From positions 900,001 through 932,000 of the forward strand of contig MGBH01000001.1 of the NCBI GenBank assembly GCA_001790095.1: a stretch of DNA of 32,000 nucleotides, given 5' to 3'. The notes under the pieces were generated by a model. That model ran no database searches. It saw only the letters and a list, made by a program, of their open reading frames with translations, and was not told the DNA's origin. A program made the translations under genes and the position numbers. The DNA comes from Candidatus Saccharimonadota bacterium (GTDB taxonomy: Bacteria > Patescibacteriota > Microgenomatia > UBA1406 > GWC2-37-13). This document shows, one piece after another, positions 606 to 17,415 of the stretch; positions within the stretch are counted from its first letter, which is position 1; each line of letters begins with the position of its first letter.

Positions 606-1418
606 TAAATTATGAGGGTGTAGTATATAGATATATACGAACCTGATGATTATCCCCCTTCGTTCACGTTCGTCTTACAGTTATCCGCCGCATCTTCCTT
701 CTCGCCTTTTCAGTTCTATTCGAACACGGCTCGAAGAGCAATGCTTGGCGGATTTGGTCTCAGTATTTCTAAAATTTCATTTTAGAAACTGATCCCAAAC
801 AAAACGCGCCCTGCCTTTCACCAATGTGGGAAAAACAGGGCGGCGCTTAAAGTGTCTCAATCATTTATCCAGGACTATATCTTTTACCGTTAAACCATGA
901 CATCCTGAATAAGGTTATAAGGTCTAAGATGATACTCATATATTTTAAGATTTAATTGTTAAAGGTGCGATTTTGAAGAGTGTGAGAGCTTTTTTCAAGT
1001 TGGCCTTATATAAGGCTATGTTTGTTGAGTTGGTTTGACCGTTTGTTTACTCAACCTTTTTTTGAAAAATTCCCCGCCTTCTCTTCTTGATCCTTAAGAA
1101 ACTGCCTATGTATTGTTTGCTTATTGTTGAAAACTTTTCTAGATAAAGTTTTCACTCATCCCGGGTTTGCTAAGCAAATTTTGAAAAAGCGTTTCTTGGA
1201 TCTAACTTATAATATTTTTTGAAGAGATTTTAATTTTTCTCTTCATAATATCAGAATAAAGTATATTTTTAATTTTGTCAAGGGGTATTTTATCTTATAG
1301 TTAAAATACTAGGGTCTTTGAAGCTAAAATACAAATATAGTTCGTCAAAAATACTTAATACCTATAATAAATATTATGTTTTTTGAAAAAAATATAAACT
1401 CTTATTTATTCTCTCGTT

Positions 1419-1427
1419 TGTTACACT
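1419..1427 (+). promoter_or_regulatory. Extended -10 (TGtTACACT) 6 nt upstream of the transketolase ATG
   Basis: TGtTACACT-aaatat-ATG(1434). The same 9-mer and spacing occur upstream of the ORF at 23728. Confidence 0.4.
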
Positions 1428-1433
1428 AAATAT

Positions 1434-3596
1434 ATGACTAGTATCTTGACTCTTAAAGCATTAAGTAAACGTATCCGCTACCAAATCCTTTCTTCAACTA
1501 CTGCGGCCGGGTCTGGTCATCCAACATCGTGTCTCTCAGCTGTTGAGCTCATGACTACCCTCTTTTTCGGAGGGTTTCTGAAGCAAGATATACAAAATCC
1601 CCAAAATTATGAAAATGATCGGGTTATTTTTTCCAAAGGCCATGCTGCTCCCCTTTTATACTCTTTATACGAGACAGCGGGGGTGCTCACTCAAAAAGAA
1701 CTGATGACACTCCGCAAGTTTGATTCGCGCCTCCAGGGCCATCCCACCCCTGAGTTTCCATGGGCTGATGTAGCAACGGGCAGCTTGGGGCAAGGATTGT
1801 CTATCGCTGTTGGCATGGCTCTTGCTTTAAAAAACTTTCGGTCACTACTTCCTAATATATATGTTCTCCTGGGTGATTCTGAGCTTGCTGAAGGACAAAA
1901 TTGGGAAGCACTTGAAATAGCCTCATATTATAAACTCAATACTATCGTTGGCATTCTTGATATGAGTCGTTTAGGCCAACAGGGACAAACTATGCTCGGA
2001 TGGAACACACATGCCTACGCAAAAAGAGTTGAGGCTTTTGGATGTCAGGCCATTGTGGTAGAAGATGGCAACGACCTAAAACAGGTATATAATGCGTTTA
2101 TGCAGGTTGAAAGCTTACGTCTTACCTCCCATAAGCCTATTCTTATAATCGCTAAAACGATCAAAGGAAAAGGGGGTTCTTTCTTGGAAGATAAAGACGG
2201 TTGGCACGGGAAAACACTTTCCTCAAAACAGCTAACAAAAGCACTTGAAGAACTTGGACCTGTGGATTTGAAACTCAAAGGAACTATCAAAAAACCAAAC
2301 TACGCTTTTGCATGTCATCCCGGCGAAGGCCGGGATCCAATCTATAAATACAACAGCTGTAATTATAGTCTAGATTCCCGCCTACGCGGGAATGACAAAA
2401 TAAGCTCTTTACTAAAAAAACTGGTAGTTTCATCTCAAATGAAAGTAGCTACTTCTAAAAAAGCTTTGTGTACTACACATTATTCGCTAAACGACTCAAT
2501 CGCCACTCGTGAAGCATTTGGCGATGCACTTTTTGATATGGGCCATGACGAAAAAATCGTTGTGCTTGATGCTGAAATGTCAAATTCCACTTTTGAAGAT
2601 AAGTTTAAAAAAAGATTTCCTGAGCGTTTTTATGAGATGTTCATCGCTGAACAAAATATGATGTCAACGGCTCTTGGTATGGCTAAAATAGGGCATATCC
2701 CTTTTGTCTCAACATTTGCTGCATTCCTTACTCGAGCATTTGATCAAATACGGATGTGTCAATATTCTATTCAAACTGCGATAGGCGGCGAAAATTCAGG
2801 CAAGAATTTGAAACAGAATCTATCGCAATCAAACACTCTCAATATTATTGGTTCACACTGTGGGGTATCAATTGGGGCAGATGGACCATCTCAGATGGGT
2901 CTTGAAGATATTGCCATGATGCGTGCAATCAATCAGAGTACAGTCCTCTATCCTGCAGATGCTGTATCCAGCTACAAACTCACCCGTCTTATGGAGACAA
3001 ATCCCGGCATCAATTACCTGCGCACCACCCGTGAAAAAACACCGATTATTTATAACAATGATGAAGAATTCCATGTGGGAGGATTAAAGATACATTACCC
3101 AAACCCAAATAAATTACAAATCACAAATAACAAATTACAAACAAATCACAAATCCCAAAATTCAAAACTACAAACAAAATATAAAATCAAGGCAATAGTT
3201 ATTACCGCTGGGATTACACTACACGAAGCTTTGAAAGCGCAAAAAGAACTTGAAAAAGAAAAGATATATATAACGGTCGTAGATCTTTATAGCATAAAGC
3301 CGTTGGACGTGAAATCATTACAGACGGCTATAAAAGATGTAAAAAAAATAATCGTGGTTGAAGACCATTATGAAGCGGGAGGAATAGGAGAGGCTATATT
3401 ATCAATAACCAATTTTCAATCAAACTCTAATAATTCAATGATCAATGAAAATTCATTGAAAACTGAAAATTGCAAAATTACAAAATTTACTCACCTCTGT
3501 GTCCGTAAAACGCCCCGTTCAGGTACGCCTCAAGAGCTACTTCGCTTTGAAGGAATCGATAAAGAAGCTATCAAAAATACTGTTATCTATGAATGA
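1434..3596 (+). CDS. tkt: Transketolase, with N-terminal (TPP-binding) and C-terminal (pyrimidine-binding plus C-terminal domain) sections in a single ORF carrying four in-frame inserts
   Basis: AAGSGHPTS, SKGHAAP, GSLGQGL and GDSELAEGQNWEA (TPP motif) lie in residues 1 to about 290. ATREAFGDAL, VVLDAEMSNST, FIAEQNM, GSHCGVSIGADGPSQMGLEDIAMMR and VVEDHYEAGGIG lie in residues about 355-720. Confidence 0.85.
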   Translation: MTSILTLKALSKRIRYQILSSTTAAGSGHPTSCLSAVELMTTLFFGGFLKQDIQNPQNYENDRVIFSKGHAAPLLYSLYETAGVLTQKELMTLRKFDSRLQGHPTPEFPWADVATGSLGQGLSIAVGMALALKNFRSLLPNIYVLLGDSELAEGQNWEALEIASYYKLNTIVGILDMSRLGQQGQTMLGWNTHAYAKRVEAFGCQAIVVEDGNDLKQVYNAFMQVESLRLTSHKPILIIAKTIKGKGGSFLEDKDGWHGKTLSSKQLTKALEELGPVDLKLKGTIKKPNYAFACHPGEGRDPIYKYNSCNYSLDSRLRGNDKISSLLKKLVVSSQMKVATSKKALCTTHYSLNDSIATREAFGDALFDMGHDEKIVVLDAEMSNSTFEDKFKKRFPERFYEMFIAEQNMMSTALGMAKIGHIPFVSTFAAFLTRAFDQIRMCQYSIQTAIGGENSGKNLKQNLSQSNTLNIIGSHCGVSIGADGPSQMGLEDIAMMRAINQSTVLYPADAVSSYKLTRLMETNPGINYLRTTREKTPIIYNNDEEFHVGGLKIHYPNPNKLQITNNKLQTNHKSQNSKLQTKYKIKAIVITAGITLHEALKAQKELEKEKIYITVVDLYSIKPLDVKSLQTAIKDVKKIIVVEDHYEAGGIGEAILSITNFQSNSNNSMINENSLKTENCKITKFTHLCVRKTPRSGTPQELLRFEGIDKEAIKNTVIYE
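2314..2396 (+). mobile_element. MITE/REP-like 83-bp double-hairpin element, copy 1, inside the transketolase ORF and read in frame
   Basis: Termini are GTCATCCCGGCG...CGCGGGAATGAC (imperfect terminal inverted repeats). There are two perfect 8-bp stem / 4-nt loop hairpins at 2317-2336 and 2374-2393. By eye it is about 85 percent identical to the inverted copy at 22226-22307. Confidence 0.7.
2778..2826. repeat. 49-bp palindromic insert inside the conserved pyrimidine-binding domain of transketolase
   Basis: GCGATAG (2778-2784) pairs with CTATCGC (2820-2826). The inner pair is AAATTC (2792-2797) with GAATTT (2804-2809). It encodes the extra segment ..AIGGENSGKNLKQNLSQ.., which is absent from the usual DQIR..N..GSH spacing. 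Confidence 0.5.
3098..3190. repeat. A/C-rich low-complexity insert (imperfect repeats of about 22 nt, aaattacaaa(t/c)..caaat) in frame in transketolase
   Basis: It encodes PNPNKLQITNNKLQTNHKSQNSKLQTKYK. It shares the strings aaaattcaaa and atataaaatc with the secE-nusG spacer element. Confidence 0.5.
3408..3492. repeat. AT-rich palindrome-containing insert in frame near the transketolase C-terminus
   Basis: It contains the palindrome tcaatga-aaat-tcattga. It encodes TNFQSNSNNSMINENSLKTENCKITKF, between the conserved GGIGEA and PRSG motifs. Confidence 0.45.
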
Positions 3597-5484
3597 AGCT
3601 TGGTATTCTCTTTATTCTATTTATCATAAAAGCTTCAATATCACGCATCAGCTCTTCTTGAATATCTGCTGGTATTATTTTTTGCTGTTTTATTCTATTA
3701 AGAAGTTTATTAATTCGCTCATCCCATCGTTTTCCATTAAAAAATTGCCATAAAAGAGTATCCAATGTCGCTTTACCTTCAAAAAATTCGCTTTTTACTA
3801 TTGAGTCAAACATTAATGCGGTAGGATGCATACGTGAGAGGTATTTTTGTGCACGAAGCAAACTAATTATGCTATCATAAAAATTATCTTCAGCTGCAAT
3901 GAGTACATCATGATATGAAGAGATCGGATCTTCAGGCTTGATCAAAACATGAGCATTACCCAGGGGGAGTTGAATTTTACGTTCCGCTTCATTTTGACCT
4001 AAAGAAGATGATAGATTTTGTATGCTGGCAATTGCTTTTCGTGTACTTTCGGAAAGTACTTTCGGATCGCCACGAACTCCAATCAAAAATGTACCTCCGT
4101 ATCTGCCGAAAATAAGATGTTCTCGCTCTTCAGGTTTGATTGAACTGCTTATTTTATTCCATAAAGTAACGATCGCATCATCTGCATCAACATAGCTAAT
4201 ATAATCATTCATTTCTTTGATAAACTTCAGATCCACCACATACATCTCACGTACCTCTCCCCGCGTCACATGCTCCTGAAAATCATATTTTGAGTATACG
4301 GTATCACCCAAAAGCTTATCGTAAACAATATTCTCAATAAAATGCAGAATAGCTTCTCTCCGATGCTTTACAACTGGATTGTGATCTTCTGCTCTTGGAG
4401 TAGAGCTTTTTCTCTGCTCATCATACCTGACTTTTTGTTCTTTAAGATCAAGGTCTTCTGCAAGAAATAGTGCCGTTGCGAGTTCTGGATGCATTTTAGC
4501 AAGATGCAAGATCTTTTTTCTCATTTTTTCATGCTCATTTTTTTCTTCTTGGATATCAGTTGGATAGATGGAGTTTTCTATAGCTTCAATAGAGGAGGTC
4601 CTTCTCCCTTGTATCTTCATCGCTTGTTCTTGATTAAGTATTAAGCCTCGCGAAAGATAGGAAAGGGTGGTGTCCCGTATGGGAGAAGGTGAATCTTTGG
4701 TAATATCAATCCAATCTACCTTGTCGCCTTTGAGCAAGATCTCCTCTTGTACTATACCTTTATTTTTCCTATAATACCCGCCCCGAGTTGCTAAATGCCT
4801 TTTTACTCTTGATTCAATCTCAGCTTTAATATCAGCTTTTCCTGAAACTTGTTTGAAGTCGCCAATAAGAGCCAATACAAACTCATCTCCTCCGTATCGG
4901 CCAAAATAATAATCTCTTGATTGATCTTTTCCTAGATCAAATTCTTGCCAGACTTCATCGATAGCCTGTTGAATAGCTTTTGCTGAACGATTTACGATAA
5001 GATCAGCAGATCTGTGAGGACTCCCCTCAACAGCAAAATCAGCTCCACGAAGATCTTTGATATCAAACATCCCCAACTGCAAAGAAGCTCCTTCATATTT
5101 ACCATTGGGAGCAACTTTCTGAAGCACTTCATGAAAAAAAGCAGACCTTCCAAGGATAGGAAACCCTTCTTCCTGTATCGGTTGTTCTCCTGGAGGTGAA
5201 AACGTAATATCACGCATTAATCCTGTATCTAAGGCTCTGCTGAAAAAAGACTCAAGGATGTTTGTTGCGGTATTATATCCTTCTTTACTGGGCTCAGGCA
5301 TCTCAAAATGATTTATCTGTCCCCGGTAAATCCTTTCAAGAAAGTTATATGCTGATGGAGACATCGCTTTGTATTTATCAAGCATACGGCTTGCTTCATG
5401 GCGCGCAATATCAGGCGTATGAAGCTTGGCAACTTTGCTTTCAGCCGGTTCAATCAGAGTTTGTTCAGGAAATGTAACTCCCAT
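3583..5484 (-). CDS. Protein with two tandem GGDEF/Palm-like nucleotide cyclase domains (first has RYGGDEF, second has RYGGTF) and a helical C-terminal region
   Basis: Domain 1 reads FDIKDLRGADFAVEGSPHRSADLIV...FGRYGGDEFVLAL, with GGDEF at 4879-4893. Domain 2 reads VDLKFIKEMNDYISYVDADDAIV...FGRYGGTFLIGV, with GGTF at 4087-4098. Both align by eye to the DxDxFKxxNDxxGHxxGD...RxGGDEF pattern. The ATG at 5482-5484 is preferred over the track's TTG at 5523 because TATACT lies 6 nt upstream. Confidence 0.6.
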   Translation of the reverse strand: MGVTFPEQTLIEPAESKVAKLHTPDIARHEASRMLDKYKAMSPSAYNFLERIYRGQINHFEMPEPSKEGYNTATNILESFFSRALDTGLMRDITFSPPGEQPIQEEGFPILGRSAFFHEVLQKVAPNGKYEGASLQLGMFDIKDLRGADFAVEGSPHRSADLIVNRSAKAIQQAIDEVWQEFDLGKDQSRDYYFGRYGGDEFVLALIGDFKQVSGKADIKAEIESRVKRHLATRGGYYRKNKGIVQEEILLKGDKVDWIDITKDSPSPIRDTTLSYLSRGLILNQEQAMKIQGRRTSSIEAIENSIYPTDIQEEKNEHEKMRKKILHLAKMHPELATALFLAEDLDLKEQKVRYDEQRKSSTPRAEDHNPVVKHRREAILHFIENIVYDKLLGDTVYSKYDFQEHVTRGEVREMYVVDLKFIKEMNDYISYVDADDAIVTLWNKISSSIKPEEREHLIFGRYGGTFLIGVRGDPKVLSESTRKAIASIQNLSSSLGQNEAERKIQLPLGNAHVLIKPEDPISSYHDVLIAAEDNFYDSIISLLRAQKYLSRMHPTALMFDSIVKSEFFEGKATLDTLLWQFFNGKRWDERINKLLNRIKQQKIIPADIQEELMRDIEAFMINRIKRIPSFIHR

Positions 5485-5490
5485 ACATGT

Positions 5491-5496
5491 AGTATA
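5491..5496 (-). promoter_or_regulatory. -10-like TATACT 6 nt upstream of the ATG at 5484
   Basis: The minus strand reads ggcccTATACT-acatgt-ATG. There is no good -35 (TTGATC at a 21-nt spacing). Confidence 0.3.
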
Positions 5497-5531
5497 GGGC
5501 CTAGAAGTGAAAAAAGCGATCAAACTGAGAT

Positions 5532-5567
5532 AAAAAAACCACGGGCTCTAATTGCCCGTGGTTTTTT
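5532..5567. terminator. Bidirectional rho-independent terminator
   Basis: A7-CCACGGGC-tctaatt-GCCCGTGG-T6: an 8-bp GC-rich stem flanked by an A-run and a T-run. It lies 21 nt past the stop of the 1,898-aa ORF. Confidence 0.7.
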
Positions 5568-5587
5568 GTTTGTTCTCTGTTATTTCC

Positions 5588-8500
5588 TTATTTTTCTTCA
5601 GGAGAAACTTCAATAATAACACGACCATCTCCTCCCTCTGGCAACGCTTCCTGTGTTTTTGGATTTGGCGTATTACCAACCAATTGAGCGATGTTTTGTG
5701 CTGCTTCTACACCTCTCGTTTCTGCAATCAAAGCTTGAGGAGTAGGAGGTGTCAACACTACACCAGGCAATCCAACTGAGGCAAAATGGGCACGATAATC
5801 ATCTAGAAGAGTAACAAAAGGACTCTCAGAATCAGATAGTGTTTTTATCCATTCCCCATATTCTCGTAAAAACTTTATCATTGCATCAGGTCTCGTAAGG
5901 ATTGACTTCAGATAATCAAGCATAAGCGTAGGCAATCTATCTTCAAGTTGTTTTAGCGTATTCTTTGCAGCTGTCAAATATGCTTGTCTTGTCCCTTTAA
6001 ATAATCCCCATTCTGCTTCCATCTGTGTAAGAAGGTCCGTTTGATTTGTGGTTGCAAGTTCAATTACTTTTTTATCGTAAGCTGCTTGAAGTACGGCTGT
6101 CTGGTTTATCATCGCCGCTTCTTGTCTGAACATACCTGTTCTTGCCTCTCTTAATATTTTTTCTCTTTCTGCCTCGTCAGTGAGAGCAGCAGCAACCAAA
6201 TCCAAAGCAGCTATCCGAAGTTTATTAATCCCCGCGGTTAATTCAACATCACCTGTCTCTTTAAGCATACCTGCAAGCAGTTCTCTTACATTGGCCCGAT
6301 CAGCAAATGCTGCTTGGAGTGTACCTCTTACAGCATCTGCGGTAACCGCTTGATTTTGACTTCTTTGCGCTGCCATATAAGATGCTACCGTCAAAAACTC
6401 TAGTGCTTGGTTTGCCCTATCTCCTCCGATAGCTATTCCTACATTACCTCCCCCAACCCCCCCACCCTCACCTGTAGGAAGAGGAGGTGTTTGATCTTGT
6501 TGTAATAATAATTGTAATTCTTGACCGATAACTCCTAAAATCTGACCAAAATCCACTTGCCCACTTCCCAACTTTTCAACAAGAGAAGCGGCTAAGGAAA
6601 GACCTGAACTGTTAGGAGCTGCAGAAACCGTTTCTGATGTAAATCCTGAGGCTGTCTCTTCATGTGCCTCTATATTTGTGTCCTTTCGTAATTTTTCATA
6701 TCTTTGATTTGCTTCTGCAACCAGCTGTGCTGTTAAAGCAGGAGCTCCTTCAATGCTTTTGATTAATCCAGTTGTTGGATCAATCTCTATTCCTGTAGCC
6801 ATTCTTCCTCTCACCATATTGATGACTTGAGATAATTGATCTGCCACAGTCAAAGCAGCTTGTGCGATCTGGCTCGTTACTGCTTCTGATTGTGCTATTA
6901 AACCGGTCGGGTCCATAGGTGGTCTCATATCCTTATGGGTAGTTGCATAGATTAATAGATCATCTTGACCCAATCGTCTTAGAGTTGGTATAAGTCTTAC
7001 CCTTGCAGCTTCTGCTGGACAACTACCTTCAACTGCATCAAGAGTAACATCTCCAAACTGCTTTATAAATGCAACAGCTGAATGCAGAAAAGATCTCCCT
7101 AATGTTCCATCTTTCAGTGATAGATGTCCTGCATCATCAACCACCAATAGGGACTTTGGGGGTTTAATTAAACCTGTTTCAACAGGTATAAGTTCGTATC
7201 CGTTTTCTCCTTTTCGATATATTTCAACTTGATCATGTACTGCAGTTCCGATAGGTGATCTTCTAGCCATACCTCCAATTGCAGCATAACGCTCAAGTAA
7301 ATCTAAGGTTGCCCCAAGAACTATACGAGCTTGTGCTTCACGATATGGCGGTTTTGCACCACCCTCTATGGCTGTGTTTGCTTTCAAAGCAGTTGCACGA
7401 GCAATCCCTAACCATGTAGTCCCATCATCAATCTTCCAATGAGCACCTGTATTTTCTCTTAGTTTTTGAACTAACATGTCATACATAAGAGTCAATGATT
7501 CATTGCTATAATTTCCCGCCCATTGATGTAATACTTCAAGCGCAGCACGTCGGACCATAGGATTAAATGTTCTGCCTTGTGTATCAAGCAATATATCAGT
7601 TAAATCGTCAAAAAATAGTTGTCTTGTTTCCTCTTTTACTGGATCAAAAGTTCCTTCTCTCGTTGCATAGAGAGCTCCATTCATAAGTAGCTGAGTAGCA
7701 AGACGTGCCTGCATTTTCGCATTTAACAACCCTGTGCTTTCTTGCTCTGTCAATGTGACTGGTGGTTTTGCTCTAAGTTTTGCAAGAGCATCCTGCCATA
7801 GTGGATAATCTAATGATCGGTTCAAAGCAGAAGCTCGCAGTTGATCATGAAACAATCCATACATTGTTCGTAATAACCCTGCGGCTACTTCATGACCTTC
7901 AGGTGAGTTTTTAAGATCTGGATCTGAGAGCCATGACATACGTTGATTTGGATCTCTAAGAACTACTGCAATATCACCGGTATGCCTGAACAGTGTTTCA
8001 AAACCTCCACCTCTTGCTTTTGGATTACTTGCAGACATATCATCTGCCAAATCAAGTATTGCTAATATGTCACCATCCCATGCTCTTTGAAGTTCTTTAT
8101 TCAAAGGAATAGTACCAGTACGCTCATAATATGCATATGCTTTTTGCGCTTGAGTCCATTCCGAATGTTCGGCAATTTCTCTTTGAGCCTGTAAACGGAC
8201 TTCACGTTTTCCTTTTCTTGCGTCTTTTGCAATTCTTCCTGCAACAAGTGGGGATGCTATTTCAAAAACAGCAAGTGGATCAGCCATCATATAAAATGAC
8301 TCTACTTCCATCCATGCTGAGTCTAGCCCGCTACGCATGATTCTATAAGCATTTTCAATCGAAGCAACTGTAGCTTCAACCAACACATTCCATTTCTCAG
8401 CTTGAACCGGCGTACCAGCTGCATGAGTTAAGGTCTCAAACCGTGCAAGAGCAAGCAGCATAACAAATAAAGCTTGCTCTTCTGGAGGTTTTTTATTTTT

Positions 8501-11284
8501 TGTTTCAATATATGGAAGCATTCTCTTAAATATTTCAGGATTTAGCCTTGCAGCTCGTATCACCTGTTCTGTTACTATTTCACCGATTGTTTTTGTCGCT
8601 TTGGCACCTTGCCCCGAAGCTTCTCTTGCATCAAGCGCAATAGCGATAGGTGAATTAATGACATCATGAATCACTTGATATGTAAGTCTCATTTGAAGAT
8701 CTAGATTGGTTGTTTTAACCATCATGTCAAAAGCATTCTGTACTTCAGCCTCAAGAAATGCAAGTGATGATTCTGAGTCCATAAGAGCAATTCTTTGAGC
8801 TAAAGCATCTCGTTGTCTTTGCAAATATCCGTCCAAATCAATTACTCCACCAGCTCTATATCTAGGCGCATCAAGTAATCTCATATGTTCACTCCAAAAT
8901 CCATTACTTCTCTCAACTGCTTGATCAGGCTGACCAACTATTTGTAAAGCTATTTGGCTGAACGCTTCTGTCAACTGCTCTGTAGCTGTCAACACTGCTA
9001 CCAATCTTTTCCCATGACCTTCGGTTAATTTACCTGGCATATCATCGCCAGTTACTACTCGTTGAGTATTTATCACAATATACATCTGCTGTGCCGGCTC
9101 AAAAGTTTGAGCTAAGCTTAGTAAACGTCTTTGTTCTTCAGCAAGAACATCATTAATCCTTTGATATTCTGTTCCTATTCCATAAGTTCTATCAAACAAA
9201 GCATCTACCAATCCTTGAGGGTATGCCACAGTAGTACCAACTGTGCGGAAATATTCATTGGCACCAACTGTTAATGCACCATTTTTTACTACAAGAGCAT
9301 CAAGGTCATCAATCATTCCAGTATGTGGCATTATGCGTACCCCTCCCAAATATGTATCTTTTCCAAGAGCATATGTATCTTTTAAGGCAGGAAGATTCTG
9401 TGTTCTGCCTAATACATTAAGGGCTTCTTGAACAATCCTTTGATCAGCTTTATACAATCCATTTTGTTCTGTACCTTTTGCTAAGCCATAAAACGGATTT
9501 CCAGAACAATCAACAAGTCGTTGCCACATTTCACGTATTGGTCCTTGTCTAAGGGCCATTTCAGCTTGATTTTGTATTTGCTCTTTTTGTCTTTGATCAT
9601 TTCCCTTATATAGCTTTAAAGCATCTGCACGAGCTTGTTCGATATTAGTGTTTAACTCAGCATTTCCATTTTCATAATGTACGGTTATGTCTTGTGCCAA
9701 ACCTTCAGCAAGTCTTGGAAGTCTTTTTTCAGTGGTTGCTTCGTTGTACATACGAATCAACTGTCCTTGTGTTGCTAGATCCTGTACTTGGGTAATTGCT
9801 GGTTTAATTTGTTGAAGAGCCTGATACACATGAAGTTGTGCATAAGGATCAAAGGGAGCTGCCGCTTCGGCAAGCGCATTCAGATCTCTTACGATTTCAT
9901 CTTGTACACAAGCTCCTGGTTGATTTGGATGTACTGGATATCCAAGAGCACCATATATTGGATTTCGCATTTGAGCAACCAACTCAGCTACTCGCCGTTG
10001 TGGATCTGCAAGATAAACTTGTTGATTTAAATAATCTCTTCCTGCTCTAAGTCCATCACGGTTCAAATCTTGAAGCAATGTCACCAAATCTCGAACTGGA
10101 TATCTTTCAAGTGCTCCTTGAGTATGATTTACTGTTGGCAAAGTAGTATTTGCACCAAAGACGATCTCATTCCCTCCTAATAAAACTTCTTTACCAGCAC
10201 TGATAAATGCTGCTTGTGTAGGAGCATCAAAAGTGCCAAGATTTACAACAGTTTCAGCAATTTCTCTTCTTGCTGCTTCAATTGCAGCCATACTTCCTCC
10301 AGGTAAGCCAGACAAAGGATGAGTAACGTGCTCTATCTGTTCGTTCCAGAAAGCTAATGCAACCGAACGTAATGCATCATAGGTTGCCCTATGCGCATCA
10401 ACACTATTAGTTTGTGCTTGTGCTTCTGTTAAGCTTACTCCTCTTAAAGCTTGGCTTAAAGCATTTTCTCGTTGTTCTAAAATTCGAACAGAAAAATTAT
10501 GAGCTCCTACTTCAAAAGTCTGTTTTGTTCCGGCTATCATTTCAGCTACAATAGCCCTTGCTTTTATACGTTTTCCAGACTTTGATGTGACTCGTGCATT
10601 TGTTTCATTAAGCAGTGTCAATAAATTGCCACCGACAGCAGCGCGTGCATCACCCTCTAATTCATTAACCGCTTGAGACGCAAGAAATGCATCATACTCT
10701 ACTTGAACGGGAGATTTATCCACATCGTCATATCCTTCTGGAATGATAAGTGGATGCGTCCCATCAGGTCCCATCTTCGTATGAGTTATTAATGAAGCTG
10801 CACGAGGAATGATTAAACCACTTTTTGTTGCTACATCTGCTGGAATACCTTGCTGTAGTAATTCAACTTCTTGTAAAAATCTTCTTTCCCAACCATGTTC
10901 AATATGTGGATTTGAAAGCAGTTCCGCGTATAACTCTTTAATTCTAGCTCTTACTACAGGCTCTCCTGTATTTGCATAAATATCTTGAAGGACTCGCTCT
11001 CCATATGTGATAAAAGGAACAACATTATCTCCTGGTTCACTTGCTAATCCTTGCATTCCAATTACGGGTACCTGCACAACACCTCTTGATTTATCAAAAT
11101 AGCGACTCGTAACACCAAGTGTAGAATTATCCAAACTATAAAGTGGATCCCAGTAAGATGCAGGGTTTGTAACCGGCCCTCTTAATAATGTTCCTACTCT
11201 TTTTTGAATGGGAATTGTAAACGCTGGTTCAAATCTTCTTAACCCTAAAAATCCTGCTCCCTTTCGTTCAGTAATTTTACTCAT
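5588..11284 (-). CDS. Giant hypothetical protein, 1,898 aa, predicted cytoplasmic, with no domain recognised
   Basis: An uninterrupted 5.7-kb ORF with an ATG start. I could find no signal peptide, hydrophobic segment of 20 aa or more, Walker A or HExxH. The sequence is rich in A/L/Q/G/T/R and poor in Lys, with a Gly-rich hinge PTGEGGGVGGGNVGIAIGG. Confidence 0.85.
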   Translation of the reverse strand: MSKITERKGAGFLGLRRFEPAFTIPIQKRVGTLLRGPVTNPASYWDPLYSLDNSTLGVTSRYFDKSRGVVQVPVIGMQGLASEPGDNVVPFITYGERVLQDIYANTGEPVVRARIKELYAELLSNPHIEHGWERRFLQEVELLQQGIPADVATKSGLIIPRAASLITHTKMGPDGTHPLIIPEGYDDVDKSPVQVEYDAFLASQAVNELEGDARAAVGGNLLTLLNETNARVTSKSGKRIKARAIVAEMIAGTKQTFEVGAHNFSVRILEQRENALSQALRGVSLTEAQAQTNSVDAHRATYDALRSVALAFWNEQIEHVTHPLSGLPGGSMAAIEAARREIAETVVNLGTFDAPTQAAFISAGKEVLLGGNEIVFGANTTLPTVNHTQGALERYPVRDLVTLLQDLNRDGLRAGRDYLNQQVYLADPQRRVAELVAQMRNPIYGALGYPVHPNQPGACVQDEIVRDLNALAEAAAPFDPYAQLHVYQALQQIKPAITQVQDLATQGQLIRMYNEATTEKRLPRLAEGLAQDITVHYENGNAELNTNIEQARADALKLYKGNDQRQKEQIQNQAEMALRQGPIREMWQRLVDCSGNPFYGLAKGTEQNGLYKADQRIVQEALNVLGRTQNLPALKDTYALGKDTYLGGVRIMPHTGMIDDLDALVVKNGALTVGANEYFRTVGTTVAYPQGLVDALFDRTYGIGTEYQRINDVLAEEQRRLLSLAQTFEPAQQMYIVINTQRVVTGDDMPGKLTEGHGKRLVAVLTATEQLTEAFSQIALQIVGQPDQAVERSNGFWSEHMRLLDAPRYRAGGVIDLDGYLQRQRDALAQRIALMDSESSLAFLEAEVQNAFDMMVKTTNLDLQMRLTYQVIHDVINSPIAIALDAREASGQGAKATKTIGEIVTEQVIRAARLNPEIFKRMLPYIETKNKKPPEEQALFVMLLALARFETLTHAAGTPVQAEKWNVLVEATVASIENAYRIMRSGLDSAWMEVESFYMMADPLAVFEIASPLVAGRIAKDARKGKREVRLQAQREIAEHSEWTQAQKAYAYYERTGTIPLNKELQRAWDGDILAILDLADDMSASNPKARGGGFETLFRHTGDIAVVLRDPNQRMSWLSDPDLKNSPEGHEVAAGLLRTMYGLFHDQLRASALNRSLDYPLWQDALAKLRAKPPVTLTEQESTGLLNAKMQARLATQLLMNGALYATREGTFDPVKEETRQLFFDDLTDILLDTQGRTFNPMVRRAALEVLHQWAGNYSNESLTLMYDMLVQKLRENTGAHWKIDDGTTWLGIARATALKANTAIEGGAKPPYREAQARIVLGATLDLLERYAAIGGMARRSPIGTAVHDQVEIYRKGENGYELIPVETGLIKPPKSLLVVDDAGHLSLKDGTLGRSFLHSAVAFIKQFGDVTLDAVEGSCPAEAARVRLIPTLRRLGQDDLLIYATTHKDMRPPMDPTGLIAQSEAVTSQIAQAALTVADQLSQVINMVRGRMATGIEIDPTTGLIKSIEGAPALTAQLVAEANQRYEKLRKDTNIEAHEETASGFTSETVSAAPNSSGLSLAASLVEKLGSGQVDFGQILGVIGQELQLLLQQDQTPPLPTGEGGGVGGGNVGIAIGGDRANQALEFLTVASYMAAQRSQNQAVTADAVRGTLQAAFADRANVRELLAGMLKETGDVELTAGINKLRIAALDLVAAALTDEAEREKILREARTGMFRQEAAMINQTAVLQAAYDKKVIELATTNQTDLLTQMEAEWGLFKGTRQAYLTAAKNTLKQLEDRLPTLMLDYLKSILTRPDAMIKFLREYGEWIKTLSDSESPFVTLLDDYRAHFASVGLPGVVLTPPTPQALIAETRGVEAAQNIAQLVGNTPNPKTQEALPEGGDGRVIIEVSPEEK

Positions 11285-11291
11285 AGTATGT

Positions 11292-11320
11292 ATTATAACA
11301 AATAACTATAGTATTTTCAA
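11292..11320 (-). promoter_or_regulatory. Consensus sigma70-type promoter of the giant gene, leaderless layout
   Basis: The minus strand reads TTGAAA(11315-11320)-17 nt-TGtTATAAT(11292-11297)-acatact-ATG. The spacer contains the 8-bp palindrome ACTATAGT. Confidence 0.5.
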
Positions 11321-11404
11321 CTTTTACTATAGACTATTAAACTAAGTTATATATTAATTAATAATAAAAAATTTAAATATATATAATATACTTATAATAA
11401 ATTA

Positions 11405-14191
11405 TTAGAGGAATGACAATACTTCTAATAATCGCTCTCTTGTAAATCTGGGATATGTTATTCCATCAATTTGAAATAGTATTACGTTTTCTGGATTAAG
11501 TAATAGATGTATACATTCTCGCAATCTCCTTTTATTCATTTCTTGTTTTACAGATAGCGATCCTCTTACCTTACCACTATCCATAAAACGATCAACGTCT
11601 GTATGTATTTTTTCCAGGACTTGAACCATAGTCTGAATCACTAGGCCTTTGTGAGCTTCAGTATCTTTTGTTCTTAACATATTAATAAGTATAGTTAGAC
11701 TTTCTGCATAATCCAGCTTGATTGACTTTTTTCTCTCTTTTCCTTTTGTTGCTCTACGAATTTTTTGTTCGGGTACATGTTGAAATGCTGGATTGACAAG
11801 AGCTAAAGCTTTTGAAAGCCGTACTTTATTACCGAACGTACTACCATATTCTTTTTTTTGCCCTGGAGTTAGATGTTTTGAGTTCAATCCTTCTCTTATT
11901 CTTAACAATTTATCTGGTGGTATATGACCAACTTGTAACTCATCTATCGCTGCTTTTAATTTTGGTGGATACTCCTTTTTCTGCTTCCTTTCATAGATAG
12001 CTACACCAAGAGCAGTTGCCACAGTAGTATTAAAAAGTCCAAGTCCAATGATACCAACTTCAGCAGATACTTCGACAACCTTTTGTAATAATGGATCAAC
12101 ATCTGGAGCTTGAGCTTCGGCTACAAATTGTGCCGGATGCCCTGCATCATCATACATAGTTAGAGTAATCGTCGCTTTATTTTCCAACCATGGCGTATCG
12201 CACGTAACCGTTGACTGACTTCTATCTTGTGCTACTGAAGCTAGGTGACAAATCACCTGATCATTATTTCCTGTGATATCTTTAGTTTGTGTGCGAATCC
12301 ATAGTAATATCTCTGAAAGCGGCTGACCAAATATGTGGGTATCTTGCCAGGGAGCAGGTTGAGAACCCTGAGATTGTGTTATATCCAATGCAAGATTATG
12401 TTGAGGATCAGGATGAATAAGAAGTATATTTATCGTACGTCCGCCATGATCGTTTGGCTGCTGAGAAACGACCTGGACTGTTACTCCGGCAAATGGAGAG
12501 TACCCTGGTTCAAGGACGCTTAACTGCTCACTACAGTTACCCAATATTCCACACGCCTGTACAAAACTTGTTCTTCCTGTATCTCCTGGTTCAGGCCTAT
12601 CGGTAAACAAAGCAACACCCAACTCATTTACTCCTGAAGATTCTGCTTGATTATCTACTGTTCGTGTTACTGAACATGGATCGCCAACAGGAGTCTCCGC
12701 ACAAGTTGCATCAAGTACTCTCGTGGCATCTTGTATTGCTACATGTATGGCCGTTAGGGTAGGTGGAGGAAGAGATCTCATAAATGCTTCAAATGCAGTG
12801 TTTTGACCTGAGAACTGTACCTCACCCGCTACTCTTCCATCTGGGTCACTTATGGAAATCGGTATGATGGCCATATGAGTATCTGCACCTATTGAAATAC
12901 GAGTTCCATCTTCCAATACGATGTCCCCCATCCCATTACATAAAACTGGAAAATTAACTGTATTTGAGGCAGCGTCAAACTGTGCTCCGTCTGCACCTTC
13001 TCCTTGTAGACAGGTAGTAGGAAGCGCTGCGGTTGTTTCTCCTGAATTTTCATTTCCATGATTATCTATTGTGGTAAATCCTCGGGTCCGAATTGATCCA
13101 TCGATGGGTAATATAGCGGTGCCGTCTTCTATTACTACTCTATCTCCTCCGTCTGTAGGTATTATCCTCCCCTGTCCATCACAAGTAAGCGCAGCGGCAC
13201 CTTCACCCACAATGCCTGTTTGAATACAAATTGTTTCCTTGGTATCAACTTCTCCTGTTATCAAAGCAGCATCTCGAGCTCCTTCATCACATCCTCCTTG
13301 TCCATCTAGTGGCGCCATTGAAACAGTTAAAGCAATGGGTCCTTCTTGACCATCTACCGGTATGATATCTAGGCCAAGCCCTCCATCATCCAGTGTCACC
13401 TCTGCGCTTTGTACTGGAGATAAAACACCTTCTATTGTTGCGCATGCAGGAGACATTTCGTTACTACGGTTCCCATCAAGAACAACACGAGTTGGATCAA
13501 CTATCGTCTCCCCAAGAGCAACATCATCAATCTGAGGTGGTTCGGGTGGCATGGGAACATCAACAGATATTTGTACTAATCCATCAGGAGAAGGCTCACC
13601 ACAGATCGGTTCTCCTTGGCTTGACGCATTTAAACAATTTTCTGCGTTAACCTGTAGGGTCCCTGACCCTACTATTCCTAAATCAAAACATTGTTCACCA
13701 GGAGCTTGATCAGGTAAAGCCACTTGAACAAGTGAGATAACAGCGCCATCCATAGTAACACCACTGACTTGAGGTATTATGTCTGGGTTCGGAAGCTTTA
13801 TCCCTAAACTATTTGCAACAGCTGAAACACCAAGCAAGTGTGCGGTTTCATCTGTTTGAGATAAACCCACACAAACTTGTACAGGTGATCCTAATGGCAG
13901 ATTGCCACTTGAAGGAAAAAACCTAACATCAGGCGATCCTAATTCGCTTTGAATTGCAGCAACTTGCTCTGCACTTAAGTTTAAATCTTCTAAATCTGTA
14001 GTAGATTCTACAGCTGGGGCAGAACCATTACAAGCAGTGGTAGTTAGTGCTAACGCTGTTCCTGAGACAATGAATTGCACAGGTCCTTTTGACGGAAGAT
14101 GACCCTGACCACCACCCACTTTTACACCTTCACCAGATACATCGGTTGGGGGGTTCATTTTAGCAGAATGTCTTATGTGGAGCTCTCCCAT
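11405..14191 (-). CDS. Membrane-anchored Cys-rich surface protein (about 928 aa): lipoprotein-like signal, large ectodomain, one TM helix and a basic cytoplasmic tail
   Basis: The N-terminus reads ..SKGPVQFIVSGTALALTTTAC (lipobox-like). I count 17 Cys between track residues 66 and 676. The TM helix VGIIGLGLFNTTVATALGVAIY (11993-12061) is followed by ERKQKKEY... and a K/R-rich tail of about 195 aa. The ATG at 14189-14191 is preferred over the track's TTG at 14227, which coincides with a -35 box. Confidence 0.8.
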   Translation of the reverse strand: MGELHIRHSAKMNPPTDVSGEGVKVGGGQGHLPSKGPVQFIVSGTALALTTTACNGSAPAVESTTDLEDLNLSAEQVAAIQSELGSPDVRFFPSSGNLPLGSPVQVCVGLSQTDETAHLLGVSAVANSLGIKLPNPDIIPQVSGVTMDGAVISLVQVALPDQAPGEQCFDLGIVGSGTLQVNAENCLNASSQGEPICGEPSPDGLVQISVDVPMPPEPPQIDDVALGETIVDPTRVVLDGNRSNEMSPACATIEGVLSPVQSAEVTLDDGGLGLDIIPVDGQEGPIALTVSMAPLDGQGGCDEGARDAALITGEVDTKETICIQTGIVGEGAAALTCDGQGRIIPTDGGDRVVIEDGTAILPIDGSIRTRGFTTIDNHGNENSGETTAALPTTCLQGEGADGAQFDAASNTVNFPVLCNGMGDIVLEDGTRISIGADTHMAIIPISISDPDGRVAGEVQFSGQNTAFEAFMRSLPPPTLTAIHVAIQDATRVLDATCAETPVGDPCSVTRTVDNQAESSGVNELGVALFTDRPEPGDTGRTSFVQACGILGNCSEQLSVLEPGYSPFAGVTVQVVSQQPNDHGGRTINILLIHPDPQHNLALDITQSQGSQPAPWQDTHIFGQPLSEILLWIRTQTKDITGNNDQVICHLASVAQDRSQSTVTCDTPWLENKATITLTMYDDAGHPAQFVAEAQAPDVDPLLQKVVEVSAEVGIIGLGLFNTTVATALGVAIYERKQKKEYPPKLKAAIDELQVGHIPPDKLLRIREGLNSKHLTPGQKKEYGSTFGNKVRLSKALALVNPAFQHVPEQKIRRATKGKERKKSIKLDYAESLTILINMLRTKDTEAHKGLVIQTMVQVLEKIHTDVDRFMDSGKVRGSLSVKQEMNKRRLRECIHLLLNPENVILFQIDGITYPRFTRERLLEVLSFL

Positions 14192-14198
14192 GGGGTGT

Positions 14199-14227
14199 AT
14201 TATACCAAAAACTATAGGAACTTTCAA
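14199..14227 (-). promoter_or_regulatory. Consensus sigma70-type promoter of the 928-aa gene, leaderless layout
   Basis: The minus strand reads TTGAAA(14222-14227)-17 nt-TGgTATAAT(14199-14204)-acacccc-ATG(14191). The spacer contains CTATAG. Confidence 0.5.
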
Positions 14228-14295: not shown

Positions 14296-16842
14296 TTATT
14301 GCATCTTTTCAACTTTCTTTACCAACTTTATACCTATAAAAGATAAAGAAGAGATAAAAACAAATATGACGTAGGTCGTTGGTGAGACGGCTGATATTTT
14401 AAACCATTTTGCAATGGACGGCGTGATAACGATGAAAAACTGAGTCAGAAATGGAAAAGAAAACGCAACCAAAAATACAGGAGTAAGAAGATGCGATAGG
14501 TTCGTATGAAGTGAACGATGGCTTAACCATAGGTCAATAAGGATAAAAGACTGCATAAGAGTCAACACTGAAAAAGCGGCCGCATCAGCGATCCCGTCGG
14601 TCGTAAATCTAAGAAAAACTAAGAAGCTGATCAAGATAAGCAAAGCACCTATAATGCCTAAATATAGGATATATTTACGTTCGTGTGGTTTTAACAAAGT
14701 CATTGATCTGTCAGGTTTTTCACTCATGAGATGAGGGTTGCGCGGGGAAAAACCAAGAGATAGGGCTGGTATACCATCTGTCACCAGGTTGATATAAAGA
14801 AGTTGGATAGGAAAGAAAATATGGTTGAACCCTAAAAGCAACCCTCCAATAAGAGCTATTGCTTCTGTAATATTGCATGAAAGGAGATATTTTATGGCGT
14901 TTTTAAGATTCTTGATGATGTTTCTTCCCTCTTCTATCGCGTTGATTATGGATGCAAAGTTATCATCGGTTATGACCATATCTGCGGTCTCTCGAGCTAC
15001 ATCAGTTCCAACCAGTCCCATCGCAACCCCAACATCTGCCTGTTTGAGCGCTATTGCGTCATTCACACCGTCTCCCGTAACCGCCACTATCTCCCCTAAT
15101 TCTTGATATAGTTTGACGATACGATGTTTGTGGAATGGAGAGGTACGTGCAAATATTTTTACTCGAGGAAGTATTTTTAATAGTTCCTTATCAGAATAAT
15201 TTTCGACTTGCTGTCCGGTCAAAATCTCTCCCCCCTCTTCAATGATGCCAGCAACCACTCCAACTGCCTCTGCTGTTTTCTCATTATCGCCGGTGATCAT
15301 AACCACATTTATTCCTGCATTTTTCGCTCTTGCAACGGCTTCATTCACCTCAGGTCGAGGAGCATCATGGATCGCGACCAGACCTAAGAAAGTCAGGTCA
15401 GTTGAAATCAGCTGAGATCGGCTAGGATCGGTTTTTGTTTGGGCTGATTTCAACTGTTTATAACTAAAAGCAAGCACTCTCAACCCTTTTTTTGCCCACT
15501 TCTCCATCTGATCTTCTATTTTCTTTCTTTCTTCAAGAGTTAATGGTTCTGCCTTGTTTCCTTTTTGTATCGTATTTGATATCTCAAGTATCGATTCTGG
15601 CGCCCCTTTGGAAAAAAGAAGCTTTTCTTTCTGATGACTAACAACAACACTCATCCTTTTTGTCACACTATCAAAAGGGTTTTCGTCTATCGTCACCCAT
15701 TTTTTTCGTACCTCCTCTGTCTGTATCCCTACTTCATGTGCAAGATAAAGAAGCGCTCCTTCAGTCGGATCACCAAGCACGTCATATCTACCATGATCAT
15801 GGACATAAACAAGCGAAGCAGTAGAACAAACAATACCGTTTTGCACCAGCAAAGAGAATGGATGATTTTCCAAACGAGGGAGGTTGTGTATCTCATATAG
15901 TTTGTCATCAACGAACAATTCTGAGACCTTCATCTTATTGGTAGTAAGAGTCCCTGTCTTATCTGTTGCAACAAGAGTAACGCTTCCGAGAGCCTCAATC
16001 GCAGATAATTTGCGAACGATTGATTTGCGCCGCGACATCTCCTTTACGCCAAGAGACAAAGTTATAGTCATAACAGCCGGAAGTCCCTCCGGTACGACAG
16101 CAACCGCAAGAGAGATGGCGAGAAGAAATGCTGGAAAATATCCCGATCCTCTGAAAAATGAAATGATGAATACAAAGATAGCAGCTCCAATACCAATAAG
16201 ACCAATAAGACGTGTAAGATCTTCCAGTTTTTTTTGCAGGGGTGTTTTACTGTCATCTATGACTGATAGATCTTGAGCAATCTTTCCGAATTTTGTTTCC
16301 ATGCCGGTTTTGTTTATCTGAAAGAATCCTCTTCCCTTTGAGACAATCGTCCCTGAAAAAACCTCCTCGTCTTTGCTTTTGGGAACCGGCAATGACTCAC
16401 CGGTCAAAACAGATTCATTAAGTTCTAGATTCATCCCTTCAATGATCACGCCATCTGCCGGAATTTTCACTCCTTCCTCGATAAAACAAACATCTCCACG
16501 TACAAGAAATTTACTTTCTATCTCCGTTTGGATACCATCGCGTATAACTCGTATCTTGGTAATGGTGATTTTTTTCAATGCTTCAATCGCTCCCTCAGCT
16601 TTTGCTTCTTGATACAGACCAAATAATGCATTGAGTATGACGATTGAGACAATAAGGACTCCATCTATAACCTCACCGATGAGCAAAGAAAATAGTGCCG
16701 CCACTATGAGAAGAATTGTTAAGAAGTTGGTAAACTGTGAAAAAAATTTCACCAGTAAACTTTTCTTTTTTTGTTCTGATATGGTATTTAGACCATGTTT
16801 TTTAAGTAGTTCTTCTGCCTGGAGAGTAGTTAAGCCCTTCAT
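14296..16842 (-). CDS. Cation-transporting P-type ATPase, P2 (Ca2+-ATPase-like) type
   Basis: Motifs TGES, PEGLP (TM4), DKTGTLT, TGDN and GDGVNDAIALKQADVG are present. There are about 10 hydrophobic segments over 848 aa. Confidence 0.9.
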   Translation of the reverse strand: MKGLTTLQAEELLKKHGLNTISEQKKKSLLVKFFSQFTNFLTILLIVAALFSLLIGEVIDGVLIVSIVILNALFGLYQEAKAEGAIEALKKITITKIRVIRDGIQTEIESKFLVRGDVCFIEEGVKIPADGVIIEGMNLELNESVLTGESLPVPKSKDEEVFSGTIVSKGRGFFQINKTGMETKFGKIAQDLSVIDDSKTPLQKKLEDLTRLIGLIGIGAAIFVFIISFFRGSGYFPAFLLAISLAVAVVPEGLPAVMTITLSLGVKEMSRRKSIVRKLSAIEALGSVTLVATDKTGTLTTNKMKVSELFVDDKLYEIHNLPRLENHPFSLLVQNGIVCSTASLVYVHDHGRYDVLGDPTEGALLYLAHEVGIQTEEVRKKWVTIDENPFDSVTKRMSVVVSHQKEKLLFSKGAPESILEISNTIQKGNKAEPLTLEERKKIEDQMEKWAKKGLRVLAFSYKQLKSAQTKTDPSRSQLISTDLTFLGLVAIHDAPRPEVNEAVARAKNAGINVVMITGDNEKTAEAVGVVAGIIEEGGEILTGQQVENYSDKELLKILPRVKIFARTSPFHKHRIVKLYQELGEIVAVTGDGVNDAIALKQADVGVAMGLVGTDVARETADMVITDDNFASIINAIEEGRNIIKNLKNAIKYLLSCNITEAIALIGGLLLGFNHIFFPIQLLYINLVTDGIPALSLGFSPRNPHLMSEKPDRSMTLLKPHERKYILYLGIIGALLILISFLVFLRFTTDGIADAAAFSVLTLMQSFILIDLWLSHRSLHTNLSHLLTPVFLVAFSFPFLTQFFIVITPSIAKWFKISAVSPTTYVIFVFISSLSFIGIKLVKKVEKMQ

Positions 16843-16859: not shown

Positions 16860-17378
16860 TTAATTATATTGCATGAGCCTGTTTTTTACTCTCATCAGTT
16901 TTAACTCATTGTAAGCTTCCCTCATCGTCTCAAGGATCTCCTCTATAGTCTGCTCTGCCGCTCTGAAAGAAACTGCTTTTAGATTGTGGGGGAAATAATG
17001 AAAGATTTCGTTGCGTCCAAGTTTCCATGTTTGCCAGATCCGTTTTGCAAGCGCTTCACTGCCGCACTCTGAGACTTTTCTATATAAAGATCTCTCTCCA
17101 AGTCGGATTTCAAGATGAGGTGAAAGCAGTTTACCAAGACGCAGATGATCTGAAATATAGTCTAGATGTGATATAAATTTCACATCTTTGAAAAGCTGTT
17201 TGAGAAATCCTTCATATGTCTTTGCAAAAGGAAAAATAAGAAATGAGTAGTCTTTAAAATGAAAAGCATGATCGCGAATAATGTCTTGTGTAAGATACTG
17301 CCCTTCCAAAACTAAGTCTTTTTGCGTCTGTGAAAAATAGTTCCAAAGCGGTTCTTGCTGTAAAATATGTTTGTCCAT
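16860..17378 (-). CDS. Hypothetical protein with a HEPN-like RNxxxH motif (about 172 aa)
   Basis: WKLGRNEIFHYFPH (RNEIFH at 16998-17015) lies in the C-terminal half of a small, apparently helical protein. The start was moved to the ATG at 17376-17378, which removes the overlap with the divergent gene and places TGcTATATT 5 nt upstream. Confidence 0.4.
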   Translation of the reverse strand: MDKHILQQEPLWNYFSQTQKDLVLEGQYLTQDIIRDHAFHFKDYSFLIFPFAKTYEGFLKQLFKDVKFISHLDYISDHLRLGKLLSPHLEIRLGERSLYRKVSECGSEALAKRIWQTWKLGRNEIFHYFPHNLKAVSFRAAEQTIEEILETMREAYNELKLMRVKNRLMQYN

Positions 17379-17383
17379 ACTTA

Positions 17384-17409
17384 AATATAGCATAAATCGC
17401 TGTATACTA
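17384..17409. promoter_or_regulatory. Back-to-back divergent extended -10 elements
   Basis: The minus strand reads TGcTATATT-taagt-ATG(17378). The plus strand reads TGtATACTA-tctatc-ATG(17416). Confidence 0.35.
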
Positions 17410-17415
17410 TCTATC

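Follow-up and report, generated by a model that had tools for sequence, protein, structure and literature searches.

Do three consecutive genes of a Microgenomatia bacterium form one signalling system, or have they come to stand side by side for other reasons? The genes, here called (i), (ii) and (iii), lie on the minus strand of a 32,000-nucleotide stretch of contig MGBH01000001.1 (positions 900,001 to 932,000; hereafter the window). The original prediction, made from the letters alone, took (i) for a surface sensor, (ii) for a giant cytoplasmic scaffold and (iii) for a nucleotide-signal generator, the three working together from the outside in. A listing of open reading frames (ORFs) confirms that they exist, with the strand and coordinates given there:

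11405..14191, minus strand: gene (i), 928 residues
5588..11284, minus strand: gene (ii), 1,898 residues
3583..5484, minus strand: gene (iii), 633 residues

An exact look-up found the same three proteins, identical in sequence, in several metagenome-assembled genomes (MAGs) of Candidatus Roizmanbacteria (RIFOXY..._38_12 type). The annotation in those genomes reads "hypothetical protein" for (i) and (ii) and "GGDEF domain-containing protein" for (iii). We report that (i) and (ii) make up a conserved pair that evolves fast, appears to be co-regulated and is confined to candidate-phyla bacteria of the Roizmanbacteria type. Gene (iii) is an independent, lineage-wide neighbour outside the pair.

Genes (i) and (ii) recur together at one locus

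In the window, the three genes are flanked as follows:

1434-3596, plus strand: transketolase, on the side of gene (iii)
14296-16842, minus strand: P-type cation ATPase, on the side of gene (i)
16860-17468, minus strand: small conserved ORF o202, next beyond the ATPase

A word-indexed homology search with (i) and (ii) returned only self-clusters, and exhaustive HMMER searches were therefore needed. These, with BLASTP, revealed remote homologues of both proteins; neither is an orphan, as the giant had been called. An i-like gene stands directly upstream of the giant in the related loci L022 (also in L023, a second contig carrying the giant of L022), L024, L025 and L004. The order in L022 is small ORF, ATPase, i-like protein of 774 residues, giant (P0026) and transketolase, and the slot of the pair in the relatives is the same as in the window, after the ATPase and before the transketolase. 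Co-occurrence thus holds for part of the predicted trio: (i) and (ii) are found together at the same locus, and (iii) is also found without them (see below).

The promoter regions point the same way. The original prediction described near-identical consensus promoters before (i) and (ii), a strong bidirectional terminator after (ii) and a separate -10 for (iii), and all of these are present:

14199..14227, minus strand: promoter of (i), with TTGAAA, the CCTATAGT spacer element and TGGTATAAT; the -10 ends 7 nucleotides (nt) before the ATG
11292..11320, minus strand: promoter of (ii), with TTGAAA, the CTATAGT spacer element and TGTTATAAT; the -10 ends 7 nt before the ATG
5533..5567, no strand assigned: bidirectional intrinsic terminator after (ii), a 14-bp perfect stem with a 7-nt loop and A and T runs on both sides

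Both promoters are of the form TTGAAA-17-TATAAT with an upstream TG, each matching 11 of 12 consensus positions; (iii) has a TATACT box at 5496-5491, 6 nt before its start. Twelve upstream regions from seven organisms align as ATTGaAAA, N, CCTATAGT, N, TTTGnTATAAT, with invariant columns. The composite pattern (TTGaAA, CCTATAGT, TGnTATAAT) was then sought in 229 kb, comprising the window and the fetched loci, where it has 10 matches against 0.33 expected by chance. Four of these sites are directly before i-like genes, five before ii-like genes and one before the window ORF o555; none, at any locus, precedes a iii-like gene. Both members of the pair carry the element in the window, L004, L022 and L025, though their proteins by now share no more than 33 percent identity. 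This private element, present on (i) and (ii) and missing from (iii), is the strongest argument for joint regulation of the two without the third. Because each has its own strong, apparently leaderless promoter with the CCTATAGT element, the two genes are probably switched together.

The -10 of (i) ends so near the ATG that its transcript should be leaderless or nearly so. Many window genes lack a Shine-Dalgarno sequence and have a -10-like hexamer that ends 5-8 nt ahead of the start codon (e.g., 1422-1433, 14297-14310 and 19765-19776), so leaderless expression looks like the norm of the host and not a property of the module. Leaderless or near-leaderless transcripts may be the rule in this organism; a literature search on leaderless expression in Patescibacteria found nothing relevant.

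The gene before which the tenth site lies, o555 (19777-21444, plus strand), encodes 555 residues with no significant Pfam match. It contains LHPALDGNGTIAKAL, a degenerate Fic motif, and its Pfam Fic match is below threshold (E 0.0044). Its promoter (19743-19770) has the same CCTATAGT/TGGTATAAT as those of (i) and (ii). L022 has nothing in the o555 slot, between the cytidylate kinase and L1 genes, and L001 has a Y1 transposase there; no fetched locus yielded an o555 homologue.

Homologous pairs, at the same locus and with the same promoter element, bear out the proposal that (i) and (ii) belong together, and the two are likely to form a functional unit. A clade-restricted two-gene module of (i) and (ii), plus an independent gene (iii), is the account we favour, with moderate confidence.

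Gene (i) has the features of a receptor-like surface protein

Gene (i) had been described as a protein with a lipoprotein-like signal, a D/G/T/P-rich ectodomain with 17 Cys, one transmembrane helix and a K/R-rich tail. The signal is the one feature that needs qualification. The N-terminus is basic and runs through a hydrophobic stretch into TTAC with Cys54; compared with the lipobox [LVI][ASTVI][GAS]C, T-T-A-C is lipobox-like and non-canonical, Thr being atypical at -3. The homologues have the canonical LLASC and LLAAC, or LLATAC, at this position. The remaining features are as described. The ectodomain, of about 650 residues, contains 8.1 percent D, 10.0 percent G, 7.9 percent T and 7.4 percent P, with recurring DxxGN motifs (xDxxGN, at strand ends), and all 17 Cys fall within residues 54-664. 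A single helix follows:

11993..12058, minus strand: transmembrane helix of (i), residues 712-733; hydropathy peak 1.83 over 19 residues, the sole such segment

The cytoplasmic tail comprises 195 residues (734-928; K 10.3 and R 8.2 percent), with a conserved YP[HR][LF]TRE motif at its end.

BLASTP aligned 614 residues of (i) with the i-like protein of L022 (L022_774; E 5e-22), which in turn links L025_842 (E 6e-27), L004_1028 (E 7e-7) and a partial protein of L024. Where the N-terminus of an i-like member has been sequenced, it is basic and leads into a hydrophobic stretch that closes with A-C or AS-C; these members have 12-18 Cys each. All members, including two partial ones, have one transmembrane helix, aligning with that of (i), and a cytoplasmic tail, and eight Cys columns are conserved across the i-like proteins. 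The family has no match in Pfam or among PDB sequences at any threshold tried, and none in NCBIfam, PADLOC or PHROGs. These features support the assignment of (i) as a surface, receptor-like, single-pass protein.

Gene (ii) belongs to a family of giant proteins with a predicted helical core

As expected for a soluble protein of no known family, the product of (ii) lacks a transmembrane-like segment (maximum 19-residue hydropathy, 1.43) and has no Pfam, NCBIfam or PHROGs match. PADLOC gave only a chance-level match to DrmD (E 0.011), on which anti-phage defence was rejected as a function. Exhaustive phmmer with residues 699-1898 as the query recovered 14 remote homologues (P0026 to P0039, 564-1,916 residues), the best being P0026 (E 1.7e-209) and P0027 (E 7e-62), and all-against-all phmmer confirmed that the family is coherent. 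The 1,221-residue protein of L004 joins it through its profile (hhalign probability, 98.3 percent; hmmsearch, E 3.7e-27). Compared directly by BLASTP and by Smith-Waterman alignment with shuffles, the window pair and the L004 pair show nothing significant; the link between them is visible only via the family profile and with L022 as intermediate. No family member has a Pfam or NCBIfam match beyond chance, none of the 15 has an ARM or HEAT Pfam match, and the family profile matches no PDB sequence. On these comparisons, (ii) is a member of an undescribed family.

The conservation profile defines one core:

7265..8887, minus strand: conserved core of (ii), approximately residues 800-1340; predicted all-alpha, ARM/HEAT-like solenoid

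Seven core positions are invariant (D862, S878, E977, P1003, R1023, A1196 and R1315). An AlphaFold2 (AF2) model built from a 15-sequence alignment has a mean predicted local distance difference test (pLDDT) score of 68. Its core is all-alpha, with pLDDT mostly about 80-95 over residues 719-1288 and dropping to 58-88 by residue 1340. Against the PDB, Foldseek returned only generic HEAT/ARM solenoids for this core (CAND1, karyopherins, neurofibromin, beta-catenin, plakoglobin and a designed ARM protein), with probabilities up to 0.99 at query-normalised TM-scores of 0.16 or less, values so low that they speak for a fold class and for nothing specific in function. The modelled fold class fits a binding platform or scaffold, and to that extent agrees with the giant soluble scaffold first proposed.

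Gene (iii) encodes a tandem GGDEF-like protein

The two GGDEF/palm-like domains predicted in (iii) were recovered by family profile, structure prediction and structure search:

4699..5208, minus strand: palm domain 1, residues 93-262 (alignment A1; GGDEF profile match; AF2 and Foldseek)
4879-4902, minus strand: GRYGGDEF, residues 195-202, invariant in 11 sequences (A1)
3943..4290, minus strand: palm domain 2, residues 399-514, with DLKFIKEMN and D435 kept
4087-4098, minus strand: GGTF, residues 463-466, conserved and replacing GGDEF

As a single sequence, (iii) is below the curated cut-offs (Pfam PF00990, 20.9 bits vs 23.8; TIGR00254, 24.8 bits vs 37.4). Its family profile, built on alignment A1, finds solved GGDEF domains among PDB sequences at E 1e-5. 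The AF2 model (pLDDT 77.7, predicted TM-score 0.76) brings up diguanylate cyclase structures first in Foldseek, at probability 1.00. In A1, domain 2 has an invariant DLKF...N...D signature and then GGTF. Together, alignment and model support a cyclase fold in tandem, with one complete and one degenerate palm.

Compared with the GGDEF diguanylate cyclases (PleD, WspR, DgcZ, DosC and the T. maritima enzyme), (iii) shares the palm fold in both domains, by profile and by structure; it also shares the metal-binding Asp and GRYGGDEF of domain 1 and the DxxFKxxN and D motifs of domain 2. It differs in having its palms in tandem, in the lack of the DE of GGDEF from domain 2, in an Asp at the guanine-contacting Asn position of domain 1 (as read from the alignment), and in having no recognisable sensor domain. 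The RxxD allosteric inhibitory site (I-site) is common, though not universal, in diguanylate cyclases. Upstream of the GGDEF of (iii) the window reads QSRDYYFGRYGGDEF, with R and D out of RxxD register and in columns that A1 does not conserve. On its own, (iii) is a variant of the GGDEF kind. We infer a pseudo-dimeric enzyme of the nucleotide-cyclase type, in which domain 1 supplies the one complete catalytic centre and the degenerate palm retains the residues for nucleotide binding. Independently of the pair, it probably produces a nucleotide signal such as c-di-GMP or a related compound.

Cas10/Csm1 of type III CRISPR systems resembles (iii) in having two palms per chain, separated and followed by helical domains, one of them catalytically complete, and gives full-length Foldseek matches at a probability of about 0.8, but with a TM-score of only about 0.18. 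The active and the degenerate palm stand in the opposite order, and (iii) has no HD domain match, no Cys (hence no zinc finger) and GGDEF/GGTF rather than GGDD. With no cas-like family among the neighbours scanned, a Cas10 identity was rejected.

The relatives of (iii) number 11, at 24-32 percent identity. In a scan of the genome collection with the (iii) alignment, ordinary GGDEF genes dominated the matches, and a single true relative emerged. A DNA-pattern scan of metagenomes for DLKFIKEMN returned six stretches, among them a further short contig of the iii-like kind (L020) and, probably, a further iii-like ORF (L021); three of the other four were examined and are not relatives, and none of the six offered usable module context.

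Alternatives to a two-gene module

The alternative that survives best holds that (i) and (ii) are functionally unrelated, being fast-evolving lineage-specific genes that clade synteny alone has kept adjacent. Two observations lend it weight. Every example comes from one lineage with conserved gene order, which makes repeated adjacency weaker functional evidence than it would be across unrelated genomes. In L026, the giant directly follows the ATPase with no i-like gene, and in L027 only a 210-residue membrane-type ORF lies upstream of the giant, so the partner is frequent and not obligatory. Other points bear on the favoured account as a whole: the contact of (i) with (ii) is a putative one; the solenoid matches reach only to a fold class; the fold model covers the core region of (ii); and in L004 and L025 the pair has a iii-like gene no more than about 2 kb away, which makes a loose functional tie of (iii) to the pair conceivable. 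Against unrelated genes, however, stand the unusual promoter element, kept on both genes in four organisms and found outside the module, within the 229 kb searched, only before o555, and the signature of low GC content at third codon positions (GC3) and low Lys that (i) and (ii) share. We regard the two genes as rather unlikely to be unrelated.

The three-gene signalling system of the original prediction draws on the proximity of (iii) in L004 and L025, on the adjacency of all three genes on one strand in the window, and on the fast evolution of (iii) itself. However, iii-like genes occur in the ATPase/transketolase block of relatives that have no i- or ii-like gene. L001 and L002 have the small ORF, the ATPase, the transketolase on the opposite strand and the iii-like gene, with no large unknown gene; L007, a named Roizmanbacteria MAG, has the small ORF and the ATPase followed directly by the iii-like gene; and L003 (GCA_000402195.1) has the same block with a iii-like gene and an unrelated insertion before the ATPase. 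In L004 and L025, a transketolase gene separates the giant from the iii-like gene, and no iii-like gene was found in the sequence examined around the giants of L026 and L027. The strong terminator lies between (ii) and (iii), and the promoter element of the module is missing from (iii) in every locus. The adjacency of (ii) and (iii) in the window is a local, derived arrangement. An outside-in system of three genes is improbable on this evidence, and there is little chance that (iii) is a functional part of the module.

Foreign origin had also been proposed, from a higher GC content inside the module and from Lys-poor proteins. A small GC excess does exist (1-kb windows, 0.39-0.45 inside the module vs 0.33-0.45 elsewhere in the window), but it comes from codon positions 1 and 2, i.e., from amino-acid content, and GC3 is lower, not higher: 0.24 in (i) and 0.22 in (ii), the lowest in the window, vs 0.29-0.38 in the neighbours. 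Lys is indeed scarce in (i) and (ii) (3.3 and 3.7 percent) but not in (iii) (7.4 percent). The GC content of the pair tracks that of the host, from 40 percent in the window to 56 percent in L022. The GC3 of i-like and ii-like genes is up to about 0.16 below that of most or all neighbours in the window, L004, L022, L025 and L026, in genomes of about 40 or about 55 percent GC. The offset may stem from weak codon selection, from an expression level unlike that of the neighbours, or from a mutation bias that affects fast-evolving genes.

Divergence from L022 differs widely from gene to gene:

ATPase: 72 percent identity between window and L022
o202: 71 percent identity
Transketolase: 50 percent identity
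TMTC-like protein: 45 percent identity
(ii): 32.5 percent identity
(i): 24 percent identity

The ATPases of giant-bearing loci are 65-72 percent identical to that of the window, and those of loci without a giant are 60-61 percent identical, a split consistent with one gain in a sub-clade and vertical descent thereafter. A recently acquired island, be it a mobile element, a defence system or a phage remnant with a tape-measure-like giant, would account for the atypical codon usage, for the presence of the pair in some relatives and its absence from others, and for the rearranged ATPase neighbourhood of several relatives; it is very improbable all the same, as the pair occupies the same chromosomal slot in all relatives, its presence follows ATPase similarity, its GC follows the host with the same GC3 offset everywhere, its promoters fit the host layout with the -10 just before the ATG, a search of its ends found no repeats, the window has no tRNA gene, none of the 13 window ORFs scanned matched an integrase-like family, and PADLOC and PHROGs gave no significant match. 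A phage tape-measure or tail protein was likewise rejected: there is no PHROGs match, the viral structures of BFVD give meaningless matches (probability <0.5, TM-score <0.1), and no phage family was seen among the neighbours scanned. Recent foreign origin is therefore unlikely, and the best explanation is a pair inherited vertically and evolving very fast.

How the pair might work

For the two-gene module, we offer an adhesion or scaffold mechanism tentatively, as the likeliest of the roles considered and yet possible rather than probable. The protein of (i), by its topology, is exported and held in the membrane by its one C-terminal helix, perhaps also by an N-terminal lipid, and displays a predicted disulfide-rich, beta-type ectodomain with DxxGN motifs. 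This ectodomain would bind something outside, such as the surface of a host or partner cell or a matrix. Inside, the basic tail with its conserved end motif may dock onto the cytoplasmic solenoid of (ii), which in turn could anchor or organise cytoplasmic partners, so that the two would make up an envelope-spanning adhesion or anchoring complex. The fast evolution of both genes may reflect interaction with host or partner surfaces.

By analogy, the pair might work like the eukaryotic adhesion complexes of cadherin with beta-catenin, or integrin with talin: here a single-pass surface protein, with a beta-type ectodomain and a short, conserved tail in the cytoplasm, has its gene beside that of a large helical-repeat protein of ARM/HEAT-like type. 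Beta-catenin and plakoglobin bound to cadherin tails are among the Foldseek matches of (ii) (probability 0.85-0.93). TMTC enzymes O-mannosylate cadherins. The gene for a TMTC-like GT-C glycosyltransferase lies near the pair, and its product may glycosylate the ectodomain of (i). The likeness concerns what the pair might do and not membership, for the pair shares no sequence homology with those complexes, Pfam gives neither a cadherin nor an ARM match, and the TM-scores are very low. Bacterial surface adhesins with Ig-like domains (Big/HYR-type) are comparable in having an exported, Cys- and Thr/Gly/Asp/Pro-rich ectodomain with xDxxGN motifs; (i) differs from them in having no Pfam or PDB sequence match and in its anchor, a C-terminal transmembrane helix with a 195-residue tail instead of a wall-sorting signal or autotransporter domain.

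These elements can be joined into one picture, which with all its parts is unlikely: (i) and (ii) would be an attachment or sensing apparatus unique to Roizmanbacteria-type bacteria of the candidate phyla radiation (CPR), a prokaryotic analogue of cadherin-catenin. Its receptor, possibly glycosylated by the TMTC-like enzyme, would dock its tail into the ARM/HEAT-like solenoid; a dedicated CCTATAGT regulon would here include the Fic-like o555; and the very fast evolution would stem from an arms race or from specificity matching with host or partner cells. Literature searches on Roizmanbacteria with GGDEF proteins and on CPR giant proteins found nothing relevant.

Neighbouring genes

Beyond o202 follow the gene for a TMTC-like membrane/TPR protein, a cytidylate-kinase-like gene and the gene for ribosomal protein L1; ORFs near L1 in the window stand where L001 and L022 carry L11 and NusG. 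The TMTC-like protein (17371-18984, plus strand, in the window; 2725-4308, minus strand, in L022) has a sub-threshold PMT_2 match (E 3e-4) and TPR repeats. Its gene adjoins the small ORF and ATPase in the window and L022, both of which bear the pair. It is absent from that place in L001 and L007, which lack the pair, and in L026, which has the giant alone; the sample is very small.

The small ORF o202, always just before the ATPase gene, is 57-71 percent identical among relatives, and its only match is a faint one to the RnlA-toxin DNA-binding domain, below cut-off (E 6e-4). In L003, a single-cell genome, a 42-residue fragment of the ATPase N-terminus (781-906) adjoins the small ORF, and three unrelated genes (901-5082; a VTT domain protein, an unknown and UPF0182) precede the full ATPase gene. 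The ATPase neighbourhood appears prone to insertion and rearrangement. On its other side, the transketolase gene and (iii) are convergent, their 3' ends overlapping by 14 nt (3583-3596). Transketolase and iii-like genes are divergent in L001, L002, L003, L004, L006 and L025, so their relative order has been rearranged in the window genome. Rfam has no match within the window.

Implications

Three points of the record are corrected by this analysis: the giant has relatives and is no orphan, the cyclase-like gene stands outside the module, and the island is not of recent foreign origin. What places the pair outside the known kinds is that the libraries searched hold no described relative of it, and not a demonstrated new mechanism.

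The genomes of CPR bacteria measure about 1 Mb, and a life attached to other cells is assumed for these organisms. To our knowledge, almost nothing is known of how Microgenomates attach to other cells beyond pili. Of the 1.2-Mb genome studied here, about 8.5 kb (roughly 0.7 percent) is devoted to (i) and (ii), two genes of no described family that keep one locus across the clade, evolve several-fold faster than their neighbours and share a private promoter element. This is the pattern that an apparatus for interaction with a host or partner would show. The pair is a concrete, testable candidate for a CPR cell-surface apparatus, with targets in its tail motif, its solenoid core and its promoter element.

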